Source: Amphiscolops sp. MND2022 (lineage: Eukaryota). Taken from it: DNA of 64,000 nucleotides. The notes beneath the pieces are model-generated. The model was given only the letters and a program-made list of their open reading frames with translations. It was not told the origin of the DNA and did no database searches. The translations under genes and the position numbers were made by a program. Position 1 is the first letter of the stretch. Each line of letters opens with the position of its first letter. Positions 918 to 64,000 of the stretch are shown piece by piece. The DNA lies in the NCBI GenBank assembly GCA_964187785.1, contig OZ076409.1, forward strand, positions 75,394,001 to 75,458,000. Direction: 5' to 3'.

Positions 918-962
918 GAGTACATTCCATCCCCCCTTCACGGGGGAGATGAGAATGTACTC
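918..962 (+). other. Conserved ~45-nt hairpin GAGTACATT(C/T)CATC...GATGAGAATGTACTC with single-base bulge (one per 1.28 kb-family unit)
   Basis: Arms are reverse complements apart from one extra base on the 3' arm; compensatory variant at 25247-25268. Confidence 0.85.
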
Positions 963-1132
963 GCAAAAAGCCCCAAACTACGGCCCTTACCTTCCCGAGC
1001 TACGCAGTATAAAGATTGCATATTGGTTCCGACATTTTGATAGAGTTATATCTTGGTAATCTGTCTGGGTATGCAGAAAAACCAGCACGTGCTTTTTTTT
1101 ACCAAGTTGCTTACAACGACATTTATTTTATA

Positions 1133-1168: not shown

Positions 1169-1188
1169 GGGCATGCCGAGGCATGCCC
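1169..1188. promoter_or_regulatory. 20-bp dyad GGGCATGCC-GA-GGCATGCCC (47 copies); hairpin/cruciform or p53-family-like site
   Basis: Perfect 9-bp inverted repeat, extendable by CGTC/GACG. Also reads as two abutting RRRCWWGYYY decamers with one mismatch. The motif is certain; its function is inferred. Confidence 0.6.
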
Positions 1189-1228: not shown

Positions 1229-1235
1229 CTAGGTG
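1229..1235 (+). other. Invariant unit junction CTAGGTG (48 copies)
   Basis: Present at every subtype switch; the bases on both sides vary with subtype. Confidence 0.93.
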
Positions 1236-2502
1236 CCGGGATTTCTATTCGTTCGAGTATGTGGCGCGTGTGGGTAGGGCCCCTGGCGCGCTCTTTTATT
1301 TCGGGTACACCTACTCCAAATTCACGATGTGATTTCGACGATCTCGTAAACTAGCCACACGATTTGGCTGAAATTTGGCACACGTACCCCCCTCGGCACG
1401 GTGAAGATGATTCCCTACTGACGTTTTGCCCGCTAAACATTTTTTGTTGACCAAAATAACGGTTTTTGGGGTAAAATTTTCAACTTTTTTTAAATTTCAT
1501 CTTATATCTCGCCACGGGTTTACGCTAGCGCTTCAAAACCCTGCTAAAGAAAGCTTGCAAACTGTCTCAGGAATGCTGTGTGAAATTTTCAGCTCAATCG
1601 GACTTAAACTCGAGGAGATATAGCGTTTTTCCGGAGCGGGGGGGTTTCATTTTTCTAACGGTCCAGCTTATCTTTGCCATTTTTTCGAAAATGCACTCGC
1701 CTAAAGGCCTCCCCTGGCCGGTTTTATTCCCAGCAAAACCATTTGGCCCTAAATACGGAGTTTCAGCGTTCCAGCATTCCCGGGCGAAAAGTTGTGGGAC
1801 TTAGAAAATTTCAAAAATTTTCAAAAAAATTTTTTTCCGTTATTTGGGCCCCCAAAGTGGGGCAAAAGACCCCCCAACCAGTACAGCAAGTGAATGCATG
1901 TGGAAAGCCCTTGTTTAGACGAGAAAAATGCCGTTTAGAACGTTTTTTTATCGTAACTTGACATTGACTTTTGTCGTTTTGAAGGTGACCGTTAGATACG
2001 GAAAATTGATGTTTTGAGTGTTTATCCCATCTGAAAGCCATTGAGATACAACATGTTTTGCTCAAAACGTGTTTCATTGCAGTTTCGCTGTCCATTAACA
2101 CCCTTTGGTGTCTTTTGACGTAATTTTCTTTTCTATAATAACAATTTCTTTGTGTATTTATTCATTTTTTTCTCATCAAATAACTTGAAACAGTTGAGTA
2201 CATTCCATCTCCCTTCCCGGGGGAGATGAGAATGTACTCGCTAAAGGTCAGGAACTACGGTCTATAACTTCCACAACACAAAAGAGATTGCAAATTGTTT
2301 CAGTTTGTCGCAGAAAACTTCTTTTTGCACTCTGTGACTCGACAAAGTGAACGTTTCTTACTTACTTTGAATCTCACCATACCACAACTCATCTCTAACG
2401 TCAACGCCCCCCACACACATCAACGCCCCCCGTCCGTGGGCATGCCGAGGCATGCCCTTCGACGACGTATAGCAAAATATATTCGAACGCGGTAGCAGCT
2501 AG
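1233..2502 (+). mobile_element. Representative complete unit; putative non-autonomous element/cassette bounded by CTAG|GTG (rolling-circle/Helitron-like or recombinase-mobilised; class unresolved)
   Basis: Precise unit boundaries, a CTAG 3' end with subterminal hairpins, and near-identical subtype copies with different neighbours. The start is GTG rather than the TC of canonical Helitrons, and no transposase is present. Confidence 0.45.
1264..1291 (+). other. Post-junction stem-loop with conserved GGG-KAGGGN-CCY apex
   Basis: Found 40-44 nt after CTAG in every subtype checked; stems differ in sequence but stay complementary. Confidence 0.8.
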
Positions 2503-5500
2503 GTGCCGGGATTTCCATTCGATAAGGAATTCTGCGCGTGTGGGTAGGGCCCCTGGCGCGCTCCTGTGTTTTCGGTTTTCCTACTCCAAATTCACACCCC
2601 AGTTATCTCCGATCTCGTAAACTATCCATACGATTTGGCTGAAATTTGGCACACGTACCCCCCTCGGCACGCTGAAGATGATTCCCTACTGACGTTTTGC
2701 TCGCTAAACATTTTTTGTTGACCAAAATAACGGTTTTTGGGGTAAAATTTTCAACTTTTTTTAAATTTCATCTTATATCTCGCCACGGGTACACGCTAGC
2801 GCTTCCAAAACTTGCTGACGAAAGCTTGCAAACTGTCTCAGGAATGCGGTGTGAAATTTTCAGCTCAATCGGACTTAAACTCGGGGAGATATAGCGTTTT
2901 TCCGGAGCGGGGGGGTTTCATTTTTCTAACGGTCCAGCTTATCTTAGCCATTTTTTCGAAAATGTAATCGCCTAAAGGCCTCCCCTGGCCGGTTTTACTC
3001 CCAGCAAAACCATTTGGCCCTAAATACGGAGTTTCAGCGTTCCAGCATTCCCGGGCGAAAAGTTGTGGGACTTAGAAAATTTCAAAAATTTTCAAAATTT
3101 TTTTTTCCGTTATTTGGGCCCCCAAAGTGGGGGAAAAGACCCCCCAACCAGTAAAGCAAGTGAATGCATGTGCAAAGCCCTTGTTTGGACGAGAAAAATG
3201 CCGTTTAGAACGTCTTTTTATCTTGGCTCAACGTTGACTTATGACGTTTTGAAGGTGATGTTTGGAGGTGTAAAGCACGTGAATAGTAAACGTTATGAGT
3301 ATTTATCTGATCTGAAAGCCATTGAGATGCAATATGGTTTGCTCAAAACGTAATTCATTGCAGTTTGACAATCAATCAACACCCTTTGTTGTCGTTTGAC
3401 ATATTTTTTTGTTGTTATAATAAAAAATTTTGTGTATTTATTCATTTTTTTCTCATCAAATAACTTGAAAGAGTTGAGTACATTCCATCCCCCCCTTCCG
3501 GAGGAGATGAGAATGTACTCGCAAAAAGCACCGAACTACGGCCCTTACCTTCCCGAGCTACGCAGTATAAGGATTACATATTGGTTCCGACTTTTTCATA
3601 GAGTTATATCTTGGTAATCTGTCTGGATATGCCGAAAAATCAGCACGTGCCTTTTAATACCAAGTTGCTCACAACAACAATTCTTTTATATCAACGCCCC
3701 CATATTTATCAACGCCCCCCGTCCGTGGGCATGCCGAGGCATGCCCTTCGACGACGTATACCAAGATATGCCATAACGCGTTAGCCTAGGTGCCGGTGTT
3801 TTTTTACACAATGGGGGAAGTTGCGCGTGTGGGGAGGGTCCCTGACGCGCTCCCGGGATTTCGGATTTTTTAACCTTTACGTACCCATCAAAAAATTTGG
3901 GATCTCGAAAACTAGCCGTACGATTTGGCTGAAATTTGGCACACGTACCCCCCTCGGCACGGTGAAGATGATTCCCTACTGACGTTTTGCTCGCTAAACA
4001 TTTTTTGTTGACCAAAATAACGGTTTTTGGGGTAAAATTTTCAACTTTTTTTAAATTTCATCTTATATCTCGCCACGGGTACACGCTAGCGCTTCCAAAC
4101 CTTGCTGACGAAAGTTTGCAAACTGTCTCAGGAATGCTGTGAGAAAATTTCAGCTCAATCGGACTCAAACTCGAGGAGATATAGCGTTTTTCCGGAGCGG
4201 GGGGGTTTCATTTTTCTAACGGTCCAGCTTATCTTTGCCATTTTTTCGAAAATGCACTCGCCTAAAGGCCTCCCCTGGCCGGTTTTATTCCCAGCAAAAC
4301 CATTTGGCCCTAAATACGGAGTTTCACCGTTCCAGCATTCTCGGGCGAAAAGTTGTGGGACTTAGAAAATTTCAAAAATTTTCAAAAAATTTTTTTTCGT
4401 TATTTGGGCCCCCAAAGTGGGGGAAAAGACCCCCCAACCAGTAAATCAAGTGAATGCATGTGGAAAGGCCATGTTTAGAGGAGAAAAATGCCGTTTAGAA
4501 CGTCTTTTTATCTTGGCTCAACGTTGACTTATGACGTTTTGAAGGTGATGTTTGGAGGTGTAAAGCAAGTGAATAGTAAACGTTATGAGTATTTATCTGA
4601 TCTGAAAGCCATTGAGATGCAATATGATTGCTCAAAACGTAATTCATTGCAGTTTGGCAATCAATCAACACCCTTTGTTGTCGTTTGACATACTTTTTTG
4701 TTGTTATAATAAAAAATTTTGTGTATTTATTCATTTTTTTCTCATCAAATAACTTGGAACAGTTGAGTACATTCCATCCCCCCCTTCCGGGGGAGATGAG
4801 AATGTACTCGCAAAAAGCACCGAACTACGGCCCTTACCTTCCCGAGCTACGCAGTATAAGGATTACATATTGGTTCCGACATTTTCATAGAGTTATATCT
4901 TGGTAATCTGTCTGGATATGCCGAAAAATCAGCACGTGCCTTTTAATACCAAGTTGCTCACAACGACAATTATTTTATATCAACGCCCCCATATTTATCA
5001 ACGCCCCCCGTCCGTGGGCATGCCGAGGCATGCCCTTCGACGACCCGCACCAAAATATGCGTTAGCGCGGTAGCTGCTAGGTGCCGGGATTTCTATTCGA
5101 TAAAGTATGTGGCGCGTGTGGGTAGGGTCCCTGGCGCGCTCTTGGGTATGGTGTTCACCAGCTAGGAAATAGGGGTCGATTTTTCGGGATCTCCTAAACT
5201 AGCCACACGATTTGGCTGAAATTTGGCACACGTACCCCCCTCGGCATGGTGAAGATGATTTCCTACTGACGTTTTTCCCGCAAAATTTTTTTTGTTGTCC
5301 AAAATAACGGTTTTTGGGGTAAAAATTTGAATTTTTTTTAAATTTTATCTTATATCTCGCCACCGGTTTACGCTAGCGCTTCAAAACCCTGCTAAAGAAA
5401 GCTTGCAAACTGTCTCAGGAATGCGGTGTGAAATTTTCAGCTCAATCGGACTTAAACTCGGGGAGATATAGCGTTTTTCCGGAGCGGGGGGGTTTCATTT

Positions 5501-7636
5501 TTCTAACGGTCCAGCTTATCTTTGCCATTTTTTCGAAAATGCACTCGCCTAAAGGCCTCCCCTGGCCGGTTTTATTCCCAGCAAAACCATTTGGCCCTAA
5601 ATACGGAGTTTCAGCGTTCCAGCATTCCCGGGCGAAAAGTTGTGAGACTTAGAAAAGTTCAAAAATTTTCAAAAATTTTTTTTTCCGTTTTCCCCCCTCC
5701 CCCCCTAGGGGAAAAGACCCCCCAACCAGTAATTTGAGTGAATTCATGTGGAAAGGCCATGTTTAGAGGAGAAAAATGCCGTTTAGAACGTCTTTTTGTC
5801 TTGGCTCAACGTTGACTTATGACGTTTTGAAGGTGATGTTTGGAGGTGTAAAGCACGTGAATAGTAAACGTTATGAGTATTTATCTGATCTGAAAGCCAT
5901 TGAGATGAATATGGTTTGCTCAAAACGTAATTCATGGCAGTTTGGCAATCAATCAACACCCTTTGTTGTCGTTTGACATACTTTTTTGTTGTTATAATAA
6001 AAAATTTTGTGTATTTATTAATTTTTTTCTCATCAAATAACTTGAAACAGTTGAGTACATTCCATCCCCCCCTTCCGGGGGAGATGAGAATGTACTCGCA
6101 AAAAGCACCGAACTACGGCCCTTACCTTCCCGAGCTACGCAGTATAAGGATTACATATTGGTTCCGACATTTTCATAGAGTTAAATCTTGGTAATCTGTC
6201 TGGATATGCAGAAAAACCAGCACGTGCTTTTTTATACCAAGTTGCTTACAACGACAATTATTTTATATCAACGCCCCCATATTTATCAACGCCCCCCGTC
6301 CGTGGGCATGCCGAGGCATGCCCTTCGACGACGTATACCAAGATATGTTCGAGCGCGTTAGCCTAGGTGCCGGGATTTCTATTCATTCGAGTATGTGGCG
6401 CGTGTGGGTAGGGCCCCTGGCGCGCTCTTGTGTTTCGGGTTTTCCTACTCCTAAACCGCGTTCAGATTTTCGGGATCTCGTAAACTAGCCATACGATTTG
6501 GCTGAAACTTGGCACACGTACCCCCCTCGGCACGGTGAAGATGATTCCCTACTGACGTTTTGCCCGCTAAACATTTTTTGTTGACCAAAATAACGGTTTT
6601 TGGTGGAAAATTTTCAACTTTTTTTAAAATTCATCTTATATTTCGCCCCAGGTTTACGCTAGCGCTTCAAAACCTTGCTGACGAAAGTTTGCAAACTGTC
6701 TCAGGAATGCGGTGTGAAATTTTCAGCTCAATCGGACTTAAACTCGAGGAGATATAGCGTTTTTCCGGAGCGGGGGGTTTCATTTTTCTAACGGTCCAGC
6801 GTATCTTTGCCATTTTTTCGAAAATGCACTCGCCTAAAGGCCTCCCCTGGCCGGTTTTACTCCCAAAAAAACCATTTGGCCCTAAATACGGGGTTTCAGC
6901 GTTCTAGCATTTTCGGGCGAAAAGTTGTGGGACTTAGAATATTTCAAAAATTTTCAAAAAAATTTTTTCCGTTATTTGGGCCCCCAATGTGGGGGAAAGG
7001 ACCCCCCAACCAGTATTTTGAGTGAATGCGTGTGCAAAGCGCTTGTTTAGAGGAGAAAAATGTCGTTTAGAACGTCTTTTTATCTTTACTCAACGTTGAC
7101 TTTTGTCGTTTTGAAGGTGACCGTTAGATACAGAAAATTGATATTTTGAGTATTTATCCCATCTGAAAGCCATTGTGATACAACATGTTTTGCTCAAAAC
7201 GTGTTTCATTGCAGTTCCGCTGTCCATTGACACCCTTTGATGTCTTTTGACGTAATTTTCTTTTCTATAATAACAATTTTTTTGTGTATTTATTCATTTT
7301 TTTCTCATCAAATAACTTGAAACAGTTGAGTACATTCCATCTCCCTTCCCGGGGGAGATGAGAATGTACTCGCTAAAGGTCAGGAACTACGGTCTATATC
7401 TTCCACAACACAAAAGCAATTGAAAATTGTTTCAGTTTGTCGCAGAAAGCTTTTCTTTTTGCACTCAGTGACTCGGCAAAGTGAACGATTTTGACCCATA
7501 TTGAATCTTACTTTACCACAACTCATCTCTAACGTCAACGCCCCCCACACACATCAACGCCCCCCGTCCGTGGGCATGCCGAGGCATGCCCTTCGACGAC
7601 GTATAGCAAAATATATTCGAACGCGGTAGCAGCTAG

Positions 7637-8904
7637 GTGGCCGTGTCTTTTCGACGTGCTTTTGCATTGAGGAGTGGGTAGGGCCCCGCGACGACCTAGA
7701 AGAATTGGATGCTCACCGAAACGTGCAGAATTCTACGAGATCTCATAGTTTGAGCCATACGATTTTTCTGAAATTTGGCATGTGGCCTGGAATTGGTGAG
7801 TAGGTAAAACGTGTAGGAGGTGATTTTTCCCAAATTCCACTGTGAGACGAGATATGGGCAAATAACGGTCCCAAAAATGGCAAAAATGCACTTTTTTCAA
7901 CTTTGTCAGCCCATATCTCGTTCCCAGGTGCCCGGAGCGGGACGCGTTAAGCTGATTATAAACTCTAGGGTGTTGAGGCTGTACGGTGAACTTGGGCCCG
8001 TTCCGATCCGACTTGTAGTCTTGGAGAAATAACGGTATTTTTGGGGAACCTTTTCTAACGGTCCAGCTTATCTTTGCCATTTTTTCGAAAATGTACTGGC
8101 CTAAAGGCCTCCCCCTGGCCGAATTTACTCCCAGCAAAACCATTTGGCCCTAAATACGGAGTTTCAGCGTTCCAGCATTCCCGGGCGAAAAGTTGTGGGA
8201 CTTGGAAAATTTTCAAAAATTTTCAAAAATTTTTTTTTTCGTTTTCCGGGCCCCCAATGAAGGGGAAACGACCCCCCAACCAGTATTTTGAGTGAATTCA
8301 TGTGGAAAGCCCTTGTTTTGACGAGAAAAATACCGTTTAGAACATCTTTTTATCTTGACTCAACGTTGACTTATGACGTTTTGAATGTGATGTAAGGATG
8401 TAGGAGGCATGTGATAAGTTGATGTTTTGAGCCTTATCTCATATGAAAGCGGTTGAGATGCAAGCTGTCCTGCTCAAAACGTCTTTCGTTGTAACTTTCC
8501 AGTGCACCAATACCCTTTGGTGTCATATAAACATACTTTTTGTCGATATATTAACAATTTTAATGTATTTATTCCAATTTTTATTATCTTATAACTCAAA
8601 ACAGTTGAGTACATTTCATCTCCCTTTCGGGGGAGATGAGAATGTACTCGCTAAAGACCTAGCGCCATGACCAAAAATTTGAAACCCACGTTTTTTATCT
8701 TCTTACAGACTTGTTTTTGTATTTTTTCGGAATTTTTTAAAAATTAATATACTTGAAATACATTACTTGACTTTACTACTACAACCCACCTCCAACGACA
8801 ACGCCCCCCTGCTTGCATCAACGCCCACCGTCCGTGGGCATGCCGAGGCATGCCCTTCGACGACGTATGCCAAATGCCCAGTGCCACGCAGTCATTATCG
8901 CTAG
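7637..8904 (+). repeat. Unit subtype B1 (other copies 28099-29366, 37159-38427, 57740-59008)
   Basis: Head GTGGCCGTGTCTTTTCGACG, internal CTCTAGGGTGTTGAGGCTGTAC, tail GCAGTCATTATCGCTAG; lengths 1268-1269 bp. Confidence 0.93.
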
Positions 8905-19159: not shown

Positions 19160-20432
19160 GTGGCCGCGTCTTTTGTCGAACTTTAACCATGGAGGCGCGG
19201 GTAGGGTCCTGCGCCGACTTAGTGCCTTTACTATGATACAAAAATAGGTACCTGAGTAAACGATCTCGAAGATGAGCCGTCAGAAATTCCTGAAAATTTG
19301 CATGTGGCCCCCAATTGGCGAGCATATGAAAAGTGTAGGAGGTCATTTTTCCCAAATTCCACTGTGAGACGAGATAAACGCGAAAAATGAGGTAAAAAAT
19401 GGACCTATTTTTGATAAATTTTGCAATATCTCGTTCCAGAGGCATCGGAGGTACCGTATACCTGACGTGGAAAATGCTCGGCATGTGAAGGGGGTTACGT
19501 GGACAAATTTTCGTCCAAATCGGATAAAAATTGACAGAGTAATAACAAATTTTTTTGTGCATTTTGGCGACTTTTTCAGAAAACCCAGTTTATCTCTGCC
19601 GTTTTTTGCCCAGATTTTTTTCTAGAACCTCTCCTAAAGGCCTCCCCTGGCCGGTTTACCTCCCAAAAAAACCATTTGGCCCTAAATACGAAGTTTCAGC
19701 GTTCTAGCATTCCCCAGTGAAAAGTTATGGGACTTAGAACTTTTTCAAAAATTTTCAAAATTTTTCTAAAAAAGTTCAAGCCGCCCAAAGTGAAGAAACT
19801 TCCACACAACTAGTATTGCAAGTGAATGCATGTGGAAAGCCCTGCACTTGACGAGAAAAATGCCGTTTAGAACGTCTTTTTATCTTAACTTGATGTTGAC
19901 TTATGATCTTTTGAGTAGCGTATAACACGTGATCACAGTAGTGAAAATCCTAATTTTCAATAATTTTCAAACAATAACGCATGAAACGAACCTGGAAAAG
20001 GTTCCGATGGGTCAGTTGGGATGTCTGAAGCATGTGTACTTTTCCGTAGTGTATAGCGGATGTATTTGGGACTTATTAGAAATTGTGATATATTTTATAC
20101 AAGTCTTTGTTTCTCTTAGAATCTTATGCAGTTGAGTACATTCCATCTCCCTCTCAGGGGAGATGTGAATGTACGTTTGCCAAACGCCTTGTAAAGCTCA
20201 CAAATTAGATGGATTCAAATAACTAAACAAGTGTGATTTGCGTTTGCCGAACCACTGCGACAAAATATCCTAAATCTATAGCGAGATTGTATGGTTTTTG
20301 TATTTAGTGTTTCGTCTTGTGTAGCCGACTTCCACATCCAAATATCAACGCCCGCCGTCCGTAGGCATGCCGAGGCATGCCTTTCGACGACGTATGCCAA
20401 ATACCCAATGCCACATAGTCTTTTCCCGCTAG
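19160..20432 (+). repeat. Divergent single-copy unit (subtype D)
   Basis: Head GTGGCCGCGTCTTTTGTCG. Retains central block, bulged hairpin and a dyad variant AGGCATGCCGAGGCATGCCT; 1273 bp. Confidence 0.9.
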
Positions 20433-24275: not shown

Positions 24276-25540
24276 GTGCCGGGATTTCTATTCGATAAGG
24301 AATTTTGCGCGGTTGGGTAGGGCCCCGTGAGCGCGCCAGGGGATAGTGTTAGAACAACAAGGATTTGGGCATCAGTTGGGAGCGATTTTCTAAACTATCC
24401 GTACGATTTGGCTGAAATTTGGCATGAAGCTTCCTTGGAACATTCTAAGAACAAATCCCTACTGGCGTTTTGCCGGGAAAAATCGAAATGTTGGTCAAAA
24501 ATGCAATTTTCCGACCAAATTTTCGGGTAAAATTTTTTTGAAACGTTATATCTCGCCACAGGGTTACGCTAGCGCCTCGCAACCTATGATCGGGTTTTGT
24601 AGGGCGTTGTCTGTAGAACACGTATGCCAAATTTGGTGGCGATCGGACTTAAACTCAGGGAGATATAACGATTTTTTAGGTGCATTTTTTGACATTTTTT
24701 GCGTTTGCCGATTTATCTCTGCCGTTTTTTGCCCAGATTTTTTTTGAGACCCTCTCCTAAAGACCTCCCCTGGCCGGTTTACCTCCCAGCAAAACCATTT
24801 GGCCCTAAATACGAAGTTTCAGCGTTCTAGCATTCCCGGGCGAAAAGTTGTGGGACTTAGAAAATTTTTTTGGAAACGCAAAATGTGTAAAGTCAACTTC
24901 TGGCCTCCCAAAGTCAAGGAACTTCCACACAACTAGTATTGCAAGTGAATGCATGTGGAAAGTACTTGAATAGACGAGGAAAATGAGCTGTAGAACGTCT
25001 CTCTAGCTTAACCTGACGTTGACTTATGACCTTTTGAGTGTGAGCTTGCTATGCGAGAAAAAATGCAAAACATGAAAATGGAAGCAAAGTATCGTCGAAA
25101 ACCCATCATAAGATGTTCAACTCATCCTAGAGCGGTTTATTTACAGTTGTTTAGTAGAGCAACACCATTCATGATCATGTGACCCATTTTTATGGGGAAT
25201 GAGATTGTCTTATTCATCCGATAGCCCAAAGCAGTTGAGTACATTCCATCTCACCTCCGTGTGAGATGAGAATGTACTAGCTAAAGTCCAGGTACTACAG
25301 CCCATATTGGTTTTATGCGACGCGCTGTATGCAAATGAGCATACTTGAAATTTTTTTAGCTGATATTTTTTTAAACTGCACTTTGACTCGGACCTGACAT
25401 ACTGAATATTTAGTCCTTATAACATACACATAATTAACGTCAACGCCCCATCCTTGCATCAACGCCCACCGTCCGTGGGCATGCCGAGGCATGCCCTTCG
25501 ACGACGCGCACCAAAATATTCTCCGAGCGCGTTAGCCTAG
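24276..25540 (+). repeat. Divergent unit subtype E (head reused at 47405-48714)
   Basis: Head ...GCGCGCCAGGGGATAGTGTTAGAAC; hairpin variant CATCTCAC/GTGAGATG. Confidence 0.88.
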
Positions 25541-51260: not shown

Positions 51261-52649
51261 GTGGTTGGGGCGGTCCCCAGAACGCACAAGGAGGCGCGGG
51301 GAGGGTCCTGCGCCGACGTAGAATAATTTCATATAATACTAGTATCCTACATGGGTGTTTTAGAGGCGATTTTGGAATCTAACCGTAGGATTTGGATAAT
51401 TTTTTGCATGCGGCCATAACTCGAAATTCTAAGAACTTTTTCCTACTGTCATTTTCCCCGCAAATTGTTTTTTGTTGACTTATGGCCGAAAAACCGGAAA
51501 TAACGTCCTTTTTAGACGTTATATCCGAAGTGTCGTCATAACTTTTTTCCAGGGCATGCTAGCGTTCTCGTTCACTCTTACACTTAGTTGCAGCATCTCA
51601 AAATACAACTGGTGGAAAATTTTGGTTGCATTCGGATCACCCCCCACCGAGATAGAAGGGTTCCCCCCTCCAGTTTTACCCCCCAAATTTGCAAAATAGC
51701 CAATTTTGAGCATGAAGCCGAGGATTTAGCGTACCCATACCCTCCTGATGTTTTGTTGTACGTATTGGGGTCAATCTGACGACATGTGTGGTTTTCACCC
51801 CCAACCCCCCCTTGGACCGGAAATGACACTTTTTTGTGTTTTTTGGCAGAATTTAGCCTTTTTCATTATTAGGCAGTCGTTTTAGGGACTCCTAGCAGGA
51901 TATCGAAATTGAAATACAACCTGATCACAACCCAGTGACAACATAGTGGCCACTTGGAGGTATCATCATGACCGGAAGTGGGGTCAACCCCCCTTTTTGT
52001 GACCGCTTTTTGACCTTGTGCACCAAAATGCCAACATCTTGAGGCCTAATGAGGCATTCAAATCTGTACCAAGATAAAATGTTAGACAACCGAAGTCCCG
52101 GAAGACCTTTAGCATATACCGGAAGTTACCCCCCATGACCGGAAGTTACCCAATGTGACCGGAAATGGTCCAAAAATTAATGTAAAGTTGAATTTTTTAC
52201 TATTTCAAGACCACTTAATTGAAACTTTTCAATCTATAAACTAGCGTACTGGCTTGTTTTGCTGAATTTATGGAAATTGATGAGCTCTATCGCCCCCGAT
52301 AGCCTTCGAAGTTGACCTTGCGTCAACTTTGTAGGCTATCGATAAAGAATAAGAAACAACAAAGTACATTGTTGCTCTCGTTTTTTTCCCGTTGTTTTTC
52401 CTCAAACATTCTTGAGACATATACATGGCCGTTAGTTGAAATCAATATTTAGCCCATGTTATAGCTGGAGCAGCGAAGCGTTACACAGACTAGTGTGGTT
52501 TTGAAATCACACTATTTAAATTAACAACTGACCGTCTTAGTCAACTCCACACATTCATACCAACGCCCACCGTCTGTGGGCATGCCGAGGCATGCCCTTC
52601 GACGACGTATGACGAATCCACTCCAACGACACCCGCAGTCCTCAGCTAG
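51261..52649 (+). repeat. 1389 bp unit of the second (L-related) family embedded in the 1.28 kb array
   Basis: Bounded by CTAGGTG on both sides. Lacks the central block and GAGTACATT hairpin; has a GATAGCC...GGCTATC hairpin and ACCGGAART motifs like family L. Confidence 0.88.
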
Positions 52650-59008: not shown

Positions 59009-62000
59009 GTGCGGGGGGGAAACCCCAACAAATATATTGGAGGATTCGGGTAGGGTCCTGAATCCGATTTTAACTCTAATAGCTATCGATAGGAAATCTT
59101 GCAAAAATTTCGGGATCTCGTGATCTAACCATAGGATTTTAAAGTTGGAGCGGCCCCCACCAGATTTTCCGAAAATTAGCGCCCCCCACCGGGTTCCATA
59201 CCCCGGAAAATTTTTTTCTGGCCACACGGGCGACCGTTAGGGGGTCATTTTAGGGGTAAAAATCATATTGGGCCACATAACTTTTTTTCTGTTGATTTAA
59301 AACTTTGGAACCCTGCTAAAAGTTTCTTGACCGTGTTGCAGGGGCCCCGAAGGTCCAAACCAAATTTTTCTATCTTGAAGCTATCTCCAAGTACCCCCCC
59401 GCTCAAACCGTTATTTTTCCGGAAACGCAGGTTTTTGACCCGGAAGGAGTCGTCTGAGCGCGGGGTCGTTAGGTGATGTATTGGGGACGGCCTTGAGACG
59501 AAGTGGGGGACAAGTAGTTTGCCAACCTCAATTTACCCCCCGGACGGGAAATGACCGTTATATGAGCGTGAAAAATGCCCCCTCCACGTTTTACCGCTAT
59601 TTCCGGTGTGAAGGAGTGGGAGTAGCGCGTCGGGTGCCATATATCAAAAGTAGGTTTAGACAAGGACCTATCGGAAACATGTGGTTTGGGACCCCCTGGA
59701 CCAACCCGTTAGCGGGAAATGGGGCTTCCGCCTCCTTTTTTTACGGTTAAAAACGGAAAATGGGCATTGAGGGGTAAATATCTCGTGAACGCGTGGAGCA
59801 ATCGTGTCCATCACTACTACAAGGTTTCATACCCATGATATGGTGCCTTCAGGGGGGCAAACAGATTTCCGCTATCTATCACCGTTACGGACTTGGCCCC
59901 CCAGCCTAACCGCTATGTGACCGGAAATGTCACTTTTTGAGCCCAAAGGGTCGGTCCCAGCCGGGGAACGTTAGGTAACTTATTGTAGTACTCAGTGAGA
60001 CGAGTTGGGGGATATAGTTTCAGTCACCCCCCGTTACCCCTTGGGACCGGAAATGACCGTTATGTGGGTAAAATTGCAATTTTTATACTTTTTCAAGTGT
60101 ATTTAGGTGCGGAAGGAGTGGTAATAGGTGCTTGGACACTATATGAGGTAAGAGAGGACGTGAGGCGAGCATTCGGAAATAACCGTTATGTTGACCCTAA
60201 AGTCCCCCTGGTACCGTAAACGACCGGAAATGGTCAAATTTTGTGTCTATTGGGTACAAATGTTTTGTATTTTGTAGATAAAAGTATCTATTAGGTGTTT
60301 CGACGGACTACAGTAGTGAACATAGTCATGAAACCTTGTGGGGGGTAACGGTATATAGCACCGGAAGTCAAACCGTTGGAGACAGGATAGGTTTTTTGGT
60401 TTTAAAATGTCTTTCGGCGTAATTTTTTCGACTCTTGTGGACTATTTTTAAAAATTAAAGTTTTTCCATATAGTTTCAGAGACTCCGAAACCTCAACCAA
60501 CATAACCGTTACCTTATGATAGCCTTTCAAGTTGGCCTGGTGTCAACTTGGAAGCGCTATCCTTCTGAAATCGGTAATCAAGAGTGTTTTTGGGTAGGTA
60601 TATATTGCATTAGTACCAATTAGAGCTTCATCAACAGTGTATCAACGACAAAAACTATGCCGTCATGATTCCGTTATTAGAATCATAGTGAGCAAATTGT
60701 TGAAAAAAATGGTTTTTTCCATACAAAATGTGTCCTAAATGCCAGGAAACCTATTTACCTAACAAATGGTGTTAATTGGAATGTTTGTAACAGATTTATA
60801 AAAGTTCAAATTGAATATTACATTTCATTATGGAAGCTGAAACGTCATATTTTAGTTTAATTAACGTCAACGCCACACACTTTACATCAACGCCCATCGT
60901 CTGTGGGCATGCCGAGGCATGCCCTTCGACGACGTATGACAAATCCATATCAAACGACGCCCGTACATGCCGGGCTAGGTGCGGGGGGGTAACCCCTACA
61001 AAGATATTGGAGGATTCGGGTAGGGTCCTGAATCCGATTTTAACTCTAATAGCTATCGATAGGAAATCTTGCAAAAATTTCGGGATCTCGTGATCTAACC
61101 ATAGGATTTTAAAGTTGGAGCGGCCCCCACCAGATTTTCCGAAAATTAGCGCCCCCCACCGGGTTCCATACCCCGGAAAATTTTTTTCTGGCCACACGGG
61201 CGACCGTTAGGGGGTCATTTTAGGGGTAAAATTCATATTGGGCCACATAACTTTTTTTCTGTTGATTTAAAACTTTGGAACCCTGCTAAAAGTTTCTTGA
61301 CCGTGTTGCAGGGGCCCCGAAGGTCCAAACCAAATTTTTCTATCTTGAAGCTATCTCCAATTACCCCCCCGCTCAAACCGTTATTTTTCCGGAAACGCAG
61401 GTTTTTGACCCGGAAGGATTCGTCTGAGCGCGGGGTCGTTAGGTGATGTATTGGGGACGGCCTTGAGACGAAGTGGGGGACAAGTAGTTTGCCAACCTCA
61501 ATTTACCCCCCGGACGGGAAATGACCGTTATATGAGCGGGAAAATTGCCCCCCTCCACGTTTTACCGCTATTTCCGGTGTGAAGGAGTGGGAGTAGCGCG
61601 TCGGGTGTTATATAACAAAAGTAGGTTTAGACAAGGACCTATCGGAAACATGTAGTTTGGGACCCCCTGGACCAACCCGTTAGCGGGAAATGGGGCTTCC
61701 GCCTCCTTTTTTTAGTGCTAAAACCGTAAAATGGGCATTGAGGGGTAAATATCTCGTGAACGCGTGGAGCAATCGTGTCCATCACTACTACAAGGTTTCA
61801 TACCCATGATATGGTGCCTTCAGGGGGGCAAACAGATTTCCGCTATCTATCACCGTTACCGACTTGGCCCCCCAGCCTAACCGCTATGTGACCGGAAATG
61901 TCACTTTTTGAGCCCAAAGGGTCGGTCCCAGCCGGGGAACGTTAGGTAACTTATTGTAGTACTCAATGAGACGAGTTGGGGGATATAGTTTCAGTCACCC

Positions 62001-64000
62001 CCCGTTACCCCTTGGGACCGGAAATGACCGTTATGTGGGTAAAATTGCAATTTTCATACTTTTTCAAGTGTATTTAGGTGCGGAAGGAGTGGTAATAGGT
62101 GCTTGGACACTATATGAGGTAAGGGAGGACGTGAGGCGAGCATTCGGAAATAACCGTTATGTTGACCCTAAAGTCCCCCTGGTACCGTAAACGACCGGAA
62201 ATGGTCAAATTTTGTGTCTATTGGGTACAAATGTTTTGTATTTTGTAGATAAAAGTATCTATTAGGTGTTTCGACGGTTTGCAGTAGTGAACATAGTCAT
62301 GAAACCTTGTGGGGGGTAACGGTATATAGCACCGGAAGTCAAACCGTTGGAGACAGGATAGGTTTTTTGGTTTTAAAATGTCTTTCGGCGTAATTTTTTC
62401 GACTCTTGTGGACTATTTTTAAAAATTAAAGTTTTTCCATATAGTTTCAGAGACTCCGAAACCTCAACCAACATAACCGTTACCTTATGATAGCCTTTCA
62501 AGTTGGCCTGGTGTCAACTTGGAAGCGCTATCCTTCTGAAATCGTTAATCAAGAGTGTTTTTGGGTAGGTATATATTGCATTAGTACCAATTAGAGCTTC
62601 ATCAACAGTGTATCAACGACAAAAACTATGCCGTCATGATTCCGTTATCAGAATCATAGTGAGCAAATTGTTGAAAAAAATGGTTTTTTCCATACAAAAT
62701 GTGTCCTAAATGCCAGGAAACCTATTTACCTAACAAATGGTATTAATTGGAATGTTTGTAACAGATTTATAAAAGTTCAAATTGAATATTACATTTCATT
62801 ATGGAAGCTGAAACGTCATATTTTAGTTTAATTAACGTCAACGCCACACACTTTACATCAACGCACACCGTCTGTGGGCATGCCGAGGCATGCCCTTCGA
62901 CGACGTATACCAAATACATACCTAACGACGCCCGTACATCCCGGGCTAGGTGCGGGGGGGTAACCCCAACAAAATTTTTGGAGGATTCGGGTAGGGTCCT
63001 GAATCCGATTTTGACTCTAATAGCTATCGATAGGAAATCTTGCAAAAATTTCGGGATCTCGTGATCTAACCATAGGATTTTAAAGTTGGAGCGGCCCCCA
63101 CCAGATTTTCCGAAAATTAGCGCCCCCCACCGGGTTCCATACCCCGGAAAATTTTTTTCTGGCCACACGGGCGACCGTTAGGGGGTCATTTTAGGGGTAA
63201 AATTCATATTGGGCCACATAACTTTTTTTCTGTTGATTTAAAACTTTGGGACCCTGCTAAAAGTTTCTTGACCGTGTTGCAGTGGCTCCGGAGGTCCAAA
63301 CCAAATTTTTCTATCTTGAAGCTATCTCCAAGTACCCCCCCGCTCAAACCGTTATTTTTCCGGAAACGCAGGTTTTTGACCCGGAAGGAGTCGTCTGAGC
63401 GCGGGGTCGTTAGGTGATGTTTTGGGGACGACCTTGAGACGAAGTGGGGGACATGTAGTTTGCCAACCTCAGTTTACCCCCCGGACGGGAAATGACCGTT
63501 ATATGAGCGGCAAAAATGTCCCCCTCCACGTTTTACCGCTATTTCCGGTGTGAAGGAGTGGGAGTAGCGCGTCGGGTGCCATATATCAAAAGTAGGTTTA
63601 GACAAGGATCTATCGGAAACATGTAGTTTGGGACCCCCTGGACCAACCCGTTAGCAGGAAATGGGGCTTCCGGCCCGTTTTTTTACGGTTAAAAACGGAA
63701 AATGGGCATTGAGGGGTAAATATCTCGTGAACGCGTGGAGCTACGGTGTCCTTCACCACTACAAGGTTTCATACCCATGATATGGTGCCTTCAGGGGGGC
63801 AAACAGATTTCCGCTATCTATCACCGTTACGGACTTGGCCCCCCAGCCTAACCGCTAAGTGACCGGAAATGTCACTTTTTGAGCCCAAAGGGTCGGTCCC
63901 AGCCAGGGAACGTTAGGTAACTTATTGTAGTACTCATTGAGATGAGTTGGGGGACATAGTTTCAGTCACCCCCCGTTACCCCTTGGGACCGGAAATGACC
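59009..64000 (+). repeat. Homogeneous tandem array of a ~1.97 kb unit (family L): 59009-60978, 60979-62949, 62950-64000 partial
   Basis: Three consecutive near-identical copies starting GTGCGGGGGG after CTAG. Periods are 1970 and 1971 bp. Only end motifs are shared with the 1.28 kb family. Confidence 0.96.
60518..60561 (+). other. Family-L 44-nt bulged hairpin (second copy 62489-62532; related hairpin 52298-52340)
   Basis: GATAGC-CTTTCAAGTTGGC-(CTGGT)-GTCAACTTGGAAG-C-GCTATC: fully paired with two G.T wobbles and one bulged C. Confidence 0.8.

Follow-up and report, generated by a model that had tools for sequence, protein, structure and literature searches.

A conserved long hairpin in the non-autonomous units of a divergent Helitron-like array and its possible single-strand role

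Integron attC cassettes are unlike units joined at a short core, with a tyrosine recombinase as the enzyme, and the enzyme of IS608 is the Y1 TnpA. Among Helitron-like elements, the accessible part of the Helraiser report describes a nick at the left end, strand displacement and circle formation, with double-stranded circles that transpose and a 3' hairpin that serves as terminator (PMC4778049). One family of HLE2, HelenSM92 of Sphagnum, is reported to carry GIY-YIG (PMC11417382), and Replitrons (PMC10288648) and centromere-linked Helitrons (PMC13404089; bioRxiv 10.64898/2026.09.17.752431) have also been described, all in sources that were accessible in part. Two open questions in the Helitron-like field concern the conversion of single-strand circles to the double-stranded form and the choice of target. 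The long hairpin considered here may bear on the first of these. The reading proposed below takes it as a conserved internal part of the non-autonomous copies of a divergent Helitron-like family, one that likely folds on the displaced strand and would mark where the second strand is made; as a whole, we regard this reading as evenly balanced.

The window, meaning the whole stretch of 64,000 nucleotides analysed (1-64000, + strand), lies at 75.39-75.46 Mb of contig OZ076409.1 (C1) in the 1.07-Gb eukaryotic genome of Amphiscolops sp. MND2022 and is made up of 47 complete units and two partial ones, all on the + strand (Table 1). The units are non-autonomous, 1.26-1.97 kb long and arranged head-to-tail with 48 CTAG^GTG junctions, and 44 of the complete ones carry the long hairpin of family 1 (H2a) and three that of family 2 (H2b). 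The open reading frames number 32, each of 100-180 aa with no long frame among them, and an Rfam scan of the window gave no match. Extended by 100 kb in either direction, the sequence comprises 186 units from 31 families, which account for 262,583 of its 264,000 bases. This stretch belongs to an array of ~6 Mb (C1 ~70.5-76.5 Mb), known from sampled pieces, which starts near 70.50 Mb and ends between 76.48 and 76.49 Mb; of 13 places sampled between 70.8 and 76.05 Mb, 12 had junctions, against none of seven outside. At least 66 families, and RepHel lineages that are 32-100% identical, have one junction in common in this mixed array, and the genome contains 4,057 exact matches to a 32-mer taken from the 3' palindrome.

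Table 1. Features of the window (positions within the 64,000 nucleotides; ^ marks the junction between units)
Feature	Position	Strand	Remarks
Family-1 hairpin H2a	918..962	+	45 nt, outer stem of 10 bp, an A unpaired on the 3' arm; unit ends 270 nt further on
H2a variant, bulged T (20166)	20134..20176	+	
H2a variant, compensatory CATCTCAC/GTGAGATG	25237..25279	+	changed pair at 25247-25268
Family-2 hairpin H2b of 1,389-bp unit	52298..52340	+	no bulge, T.T mismatch
H2b, one bulged C	60518..60561	+	44-mer
H2b	62489..62532	+	identical to 60518-60561
Short 3' palindrome H3, GGGCATGC-CGAG-GCATGCCC	1169..1188	+	40-50 nt before unit end
Junction CTAG^GTG	1229..1235	+	one element's 3' end meets the 5' start of the next; putative nick and insertion site
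5' hairpin H1	1264..1291	+	core GGG(T/G)AGGG(T/C)CC invariant
Complete 1,270-bp non-autonomous unit	1233..2502	+	first ~760 bp 88% identical to autonomous RepHel element's 5' end (family representative tested)
1,970-bp unit	59009..60978	+	family representative matches an autonomous element at 92% over 1,187 bp

The order of units is mostly mixed, with some local duplication also shaping the array, since same-family neighbours in the 186-unit stretch number 38 against 25.0 +/- 3.9 expected. The 5' and 3' sides across a junction assort almost freely (NMI 0.42, against 0.38 when shuffled and 0.67 within a unit). Array segments in the opposite orientation occur at C1 76.05 Mb (L096) and in L002, where two arrays converge in a locus that contains 200 N, and large RepHel clusters are not found one per contig. 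An assembly artefact or a simple satellite was ruled out as the source of the array by its family diversity, the solo insertions and the dispersed copies. In two contig sets one 151-nt sequencing record, from a run that is possibly the source sample, spans a junction; it was not counted as support. In other organisms, two short metagenome contigs without element ends were matched, and no viral contigs.

The passengers combine the 5' 760-1,190 bp of an autonomous element (88-92% identical) with a 3' module that bears the long hairpin. Compared end by end, passenger and autonomous termini agree at 88-92% over 756-1,187 bp on the 5' side and at 80-96% over 50-100 bp on the 3' side, and the identity of the 1,970-bp unit takes in the first 57 codons of the autonomous RepHel frame (60019-60189). 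A tblastn search of the autonomous proteins against passengers gave 33 matches, of which the best 30 all fall in the first 57 codons of one RepHel frame. The 5' hairpin H1 is found in both autonomous and passenger elements, and its stems change wholesale between families yet stay complementary; 60 of 95 variants fold with z below -2, and the commonest H1 type folds poorly. The 3' palindrome H3 is common to several autonomous families and is missing in 18 of 66 families, which have no substitute 3' hairpin (z above -1.5 in 18/18) and yet end at CT(A/G)G, and this suggests that termination may occur at the next junction.

Among 310 units, the 3' ends are CTAG in 293, CTGG in 16 and CTTG in one, the junction pattern being limited to these, and all start with GTGC or GTGG, where the pattern permitted only GTG or TTG; the 5' boundary was placed by the flanks of solo copies. 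One common 3' end, with 562 matches, is followed by GTG in 552, by GT and another base in six, by G and a non-T base in none, and by another base in four, including two chance matches. The solo copies found at CTTG^GTT and CTGG^GTG each retain the CTAG of their own 3' end, and insertion therefore occurs without target-site duplication. The possibility that CTAG is itself a target duplication was rejected, as in 65 of 66 families the terminal tetranucleotide goes with the family on the upstream side, and the left flank of the solo copies does not match their own end. The solo unit L001 3612-4871, which interrupts a Gypsy-like LTR retrotransposon at CTTG^GT, has CTTG as its own end and is ambiguous on this point. 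The target sites seen are of the form CT(A/G/T)G^(G/A/T)T. So short a target would occur by chance about a million times in the genome, and a preference for junctions would therefore need something more. The 5' hairpin is the probable candidate, and dispersed copies may in addition be selected against. Cryptic CTTG^GT and CTGG^GT sites in the commonest unit (window 1055-1075; L111/L120) are used as insertion targets elsewhere. A sister family dispersed on C1 (L174-L177, L179-L181) has an unbulged hairpin, the same 5' hairpin and the end CTTG; in L174 and L176 it lies at CTGG^GAT inside a ~170-bp tandem repeat, and target choice therefore differs between families.

Intact elements of 12-14 kb fill the same slots as the passengers and encode a RepHel with an SLX1-like nuclease domain. 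For example, a 13.7-kb unit in a smaller array encodes the 2,377-aa protein P0001, which matches Helitron_like_N (PF14214, E 5e-10), PIF1 (PF05970, E 6e-11) and GIY-YIG in Pfam. The combination typical of the Helitron-like superfamily, a Pif1 helicase joined to an HUH Rep domain that bears two catalytic Tyr, was found, and HUH motifs I-III are present in the array RepHels. The best GIY-YIG matches of the C-terminal domain are SLX1 structures (profile E 3.9e-15; single sequence E 0.028). The Rep region of P0001 has 135 genomic matches at 32-100% identity, and among the matches listed 33 lie in C1 70.5-76.5 Mb, all on the + strand. All ten of the complete autonomous elements that were inspected are bounded exactly by CTAG^GTG, as are the four copies of one 13.7-kb family, which lie on four contigs with different neighbours and are 94-99% identical.

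Other parts of the autonomous elements were observed in passing. The element in L004 has two further ORFs on the minus strand (7359-8027 and 5220-6389) without a Pfam match, and ORF3, downstream of RepHel, looks OB-fold-like (POT1/CTC1/MEIOB-like in a protein atlas, score 0.90-0.93), a lead only, with recognition below threshold. In the same locus, seven tandem hairpin modules of ~77 nt follow the RepHel stop (about 9960-9440, minus) and two more follow ORF3 (about 5270-5130, minus); their internal-loop core is conserved and their outer stems covary, and they are possibly an RNA element. Two autonomous elements in the C1_74854 and C1_73685 regions (L049-L052) are 98% identical over 11.4 kb with unrelated 5' ends, which suggests that 5' modules are swapped. 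The autonomous hairpin of L047-L048 carries paired boxes that we take to be CCAAT-like.

A search of 1.84 billion representatives returned 486 relatives of this RepHel. The motif II spacer has 7-9 residues in 99 of 99 parsable sequences among the 150 relatives listed, and five in the genome's own HLE1 and Helentron-type elements. In a quick tree of 37 rows, built without Repbase references, the array RepHels split from the genome's HLE1 and Helentron rows with an SH-aLRT of 88 and long branches, and they are likely, on these sequence comparisons, a clade separate from HLE1 and HLE2. Helraiser aligns with the array RepHel in the helicase only (E 2.4e-6), against E 8.6e-193 with the genome's own HLE1. 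GIY-YIG was found in 13 of 20 relatives tested and an OTU domain in some relatives, and neither Exo_endo_phos nor DUF6570 was matched in P0001 or 20 relatives, whereas Exo_endo_phos is present in L156 and L163 of the genome. In at least one relative, P0004, the aligned part is identical to this genome's own, and seven Styela clava proteins annotated as uncharacterized (P0097, P0169-P0174) belong to the same RepHel group.

These elements suggest a cycle in which RepHel would nick at CTAG^GTG using the 5' hairpin, the + strand would be peeled off and the process would stop at the next junction, such that a unit could be any DNA between two origins; the released circle would re-insert at another junction and give rise to polarised mixed arrays. 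Such origin-to-origin release, with one junction as origin, terminus and target, is probably how the polarised arrays are built. Solo copies exist, and a downstream origin is therefore not needed for insertion. On the displaced strand, the long hairpin would serve as a priming or processing signal at which the circle is made double-stranded. That the hairpin is a single-strand signal for second-strand synthesis or processing is the weakest part of the proposal, and we hold it as tentative, somewhat short of even likelihood.

The hairpin at 918-962 folds as DNA with z -5.1, and none of 200 dinucleotide shuffles was as stable. One of three classes of long hairpin (H2a, H2b and a third) is carried by 292 of 298 non-autonomous units, always in the 3' part and in one orientation, at a family-specific distance of 255 to about 1,000 nt from the unit end. 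Identity within the hairpin is 0.87 among 31 family representatives and 0.89 among 20, values inflated because the hairpins were chosen by pattern, against 0.52-0.59 in the flanks and 0.47-0.53 in shuffled sequence. The hairpin, 87-89% identical between near-random flanks, is therefore under selection. Outer-stem positions are Watson-Crick paired in 404 of 413 cases in 59 variants, but conservation is mostly at the sequence level with few compensatory changes, and it fits a protein-bound inverted repeat equally well. The A-type left arm (window 920-929) resembles what we take to be a TEAD site.

The inverted repeat might act as double-stranded DNA, either by binding a dimeric protein or a host factor or by forming a cruciform for the SLX1-like domain to cut, and in this way favour mobilisation of the passenger. 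The sequence-level identity, the even strand preference of family 1 and the SLX1-like matches of the C-terminal domain speak for such a role, whereas three hairpin classes with different sequences occupy the same role, and their stems contain bulges and wobbles, which would hinder cruciform extrusion; we consider it distinctly unlikely. H2b variants fold better on the + strand in 19 of 25 cases, a bias that depends on one shared G.T pair, and H2a variants are even (29 vs 29). The + strand is also the transcribed strand, and strand bias therefore cannot separate a DNA role from an RNA role. C-GCA-G or C-GAA-G, both extra-stable as DNA loops, cap the hairpins of the third class and three of the autonomous ones.

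According to the initial annotation, the 3' arm carries a one-base bulge, kept across subtypes, that may be a recognition determinant. All 45 H2a copies of the window do have an extra base or bases on the 3' arm, though 918-962 itself has two unpaired A's. A bulged T at ~20166, a shifted A at ~16326 and the compensatory pair were seen as described. The G bulge ascribed to B-type copies is not a change of the bulged base, since 30 A-type copies and 12 of the B-type have the same 3' arm letter for letter; the register shift comes from C>T on the 5' arm. In fetched DNA, net extra 3'-arm bases occur in 223 of 230 copies of H2a and 59 of 75 of H2b, for the most part at a height of 9-11 pairs in the stem; any of A, G, T and C can be the bulged base, and no lone 5'-arm bulge was found among the fetched H2a and H2b copies. 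The genome has 2,187 exact bulged copies and 237 that are fully paired at the place of the bulge, the two patterns differing in length, and 43 of the first 50 unbulged copies listed lie within arrays, some in tandem runs. Nine of the 75 fetched family-2 copies are also without a bulge, and bulge state changes only twice on a tree of 38 families and loci; the bulge is therefore largely inherited. The tree is unrooted and does not show the unbulged form to be ancestral.

If the bulged base were recognised like the extrahelical bases of attC or of IS608 termini, and determined family specificity, its prevalence and its restriction to one arm would be accounted for. The 237 unbulged copies, many of which form tandem runs within these arrays, the nine unbulged H2b copies and the two state changes count against it, as does the distance of the hairpin from the recombination site, which is the junction 255-480 nt downstream and not the hairpin; we therefore regard bulge recognition as very unlikely. 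Similarly, a role of the hairpin in family specificity finds no support, as bulged, unbulged and family-2 units occur in the same arrays with the same junctions. The bulge thus appears to be a usual, largely inherited and tolerated imperfection that is not obligatory. What survives of the suggested structure-specific recognition site is the selection on the hairpin and a single-strand role, for instance as second-strand origin, made plausible by an HUH-mobilised element; recognition of the attC/IS608 type is unsupported.

The family-2 hairpins had been described as a sequence-unrelated replacement of the same shape in the equivalent position. A bulged C is present at 60518-60561 and 62489-62532 and absent from 52298-52340. 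Unrelatedness is not clear, because the left arms agree at 8.0 of 19 positions on average; in a tested subset (15 x 10 variants) the agreement was 8.2 against 4.7 for permuted columns (P 0.023). Some H2a and H2b variants also have the loop CTTGT in common, and the two hairpins may be homologous. The position is equivalent only roughly: the distance to the end of the unit is 255-277 nt for family 1 and 309 and 417 nt for family 2.

Neither H2a nor H2b was found in a folding scan of ten distinct autonomous elements, and a loose H2 pattern flagged four of twelve, two of which are composites with a passenger. Three of four autonomous 3' hairpins fold better on the + strand. In four of ten complete autonomous elements the RepHel stop is followed at 56-290 nt by a long hairpin, and three more tails have one at +216 to +576; four of ten tails have no long hairpin besides H3. 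A signal for second-strand synthesis in such elements would therefore need to be another one. The hairpins after the RepHel stop, together with the 5' 760-1,190 bp upstream of or into RepHel that passengers retain and the better tolerance of G.T pairs in RNA, could point to an RNA role, with passengers keeping a promoter region and the hairpin acting as a 3' processing, stability or export signal of the transcript. However, a DNA transposon passenger would gain little from its own RNA, Rfam had no match in the window, and the loops are not of the RNA-stable C(UUCG)G type, which makes this role unlikely.

The hairpin might also be a terminator of the Helraiser type that pauses the helicase ahead of the 3' end. 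The 3' hairpin of Helraiser acts as terminator in the accessible part of its description (PMC4778049), the long hairpin always lies in the 3' part in one orientation, and families without H3 still have it; but it stands 255 to about 1,000 nt from the end at family-specific distances, where Helraiser's is close to the end, and no comparable hairpin was found in the last 1.3 kb of seven autonomous family representatives (best -7.8 to -12.3 kcal/mol), such that a terminator seems hardly likely. The single-strand signal thus ranks ahead of, in descending order, the RNA role, the double-strand or cruciform role, bulge recognition and the terminator. What would matter in the hairpin is its 19-20-bp length and its core.

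In the searchable full-text literature, no junction-targeting Helitron-like clade with an SLX1-like domain was found, and the unclassified clusters of HELIANO could contain this RepHel group. The array system is a variant of Helitron-like elements that we did not find described, in which the bulge is a minor feature and of little importance by itself. More tentatively still than the single-strand signal, the arrays may represent a separate and widespread Helitron-like class with a RepHel and an SLX1-like nuclease, in which dozens of families would use mutual junctions as both origin and target, make DNA between junctions mobile and build integron-like, strand-polarised megabase arrays, and whose passengers would compete through a long hairpin used by the SLX1-like domain or a host primase for circle completion. 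Young intact elements, a near-constant junction target and dozens of natural passenger variants, from which the retained signals can be read, bring both questions of the field within direct experimental reach. An HUH integrase that is site-specific, makes no target duplication and lands at a defined junction would also be of interest to genome engineers, and a 6-Mb block of mixed transposons is a route to satellite-scale DNA unlike ordinary tandem amplification.

Compared with integron attC cassettes and IS608, the array has in common unlike units with one short core and imperfect hairpins, whereas its enzyme is an HUH RepHel, it has no cargo genes, and its hairpin lies 255-277 nt from the junction, not at the crossover, with a dispensable bulge. 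HLE1, as described for Helraiser in the accessible parts of the sources (PDB 7lcc; PMC4778049, PMC11417382), is alike in its Y2 HUH Rep fused to a Pif1 helicase, a 3' end of CTAG or CTGG (CTRR), insertion without target duplication, non-autonomous derivatives with common ends, head-to-tail end joining and, as a lead only, a putative OB-fold gene downstream of RepHel. The array elements differ in their 5' end GTG (TC in HLE1), in their target CT(A/G/T)G^GT with their own junctions (A^T in HLE1), in having no obligatory hairpin next to the 3' end (H3 is 40-50 nt away and missing in 18 of 66 families), and in their 5' hairpin, motif II spacer of 7-9 (against 5) and SLX1-like C-terminus.

HLE2 (Helentron, Helitron2), from the accessible part of PMC11417382, resembles them in a RepHel of 2,100-2,800 aa, the OTU domain of some relatives and a hairpin near the 5' end, but the array elements have no T^T target and, unlike Helentrons, no apurinic-type endonuclease (Exo_endo_phos) in P0001 or 20 relatives; the array RepHel groups apart from that of the Helentron-type L156 of the same genome. 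Short asymmetric terminal inverted repeats, a mark of HLE2, were not seen in the examined ends or in the 25 longest inverted pairs of the window. The third Helitron clade of Paramecium, compared by its description in the accessible part of bioRxiv 2025.11.06.686955, is alike in a very long RepHel that forms a clade apart from HLE1 and HLE2, in target-specific, strand-polarised insertion and in its many passengers; its ends are CCAA and its target a telomere repeat, in contrast to the CT(A/G/T)G ends and the use of each other's junctions in the array elements. Tandem and centromeric Helitron arrays (PMC13404089, accessible in part; Xiong et al., 2016, as cited there) are likewise tandem or clustered with passengers, whereas no satellite lies inside the units of the window and at least 66 families are brought together here in one mixed array of ~6 Mb.
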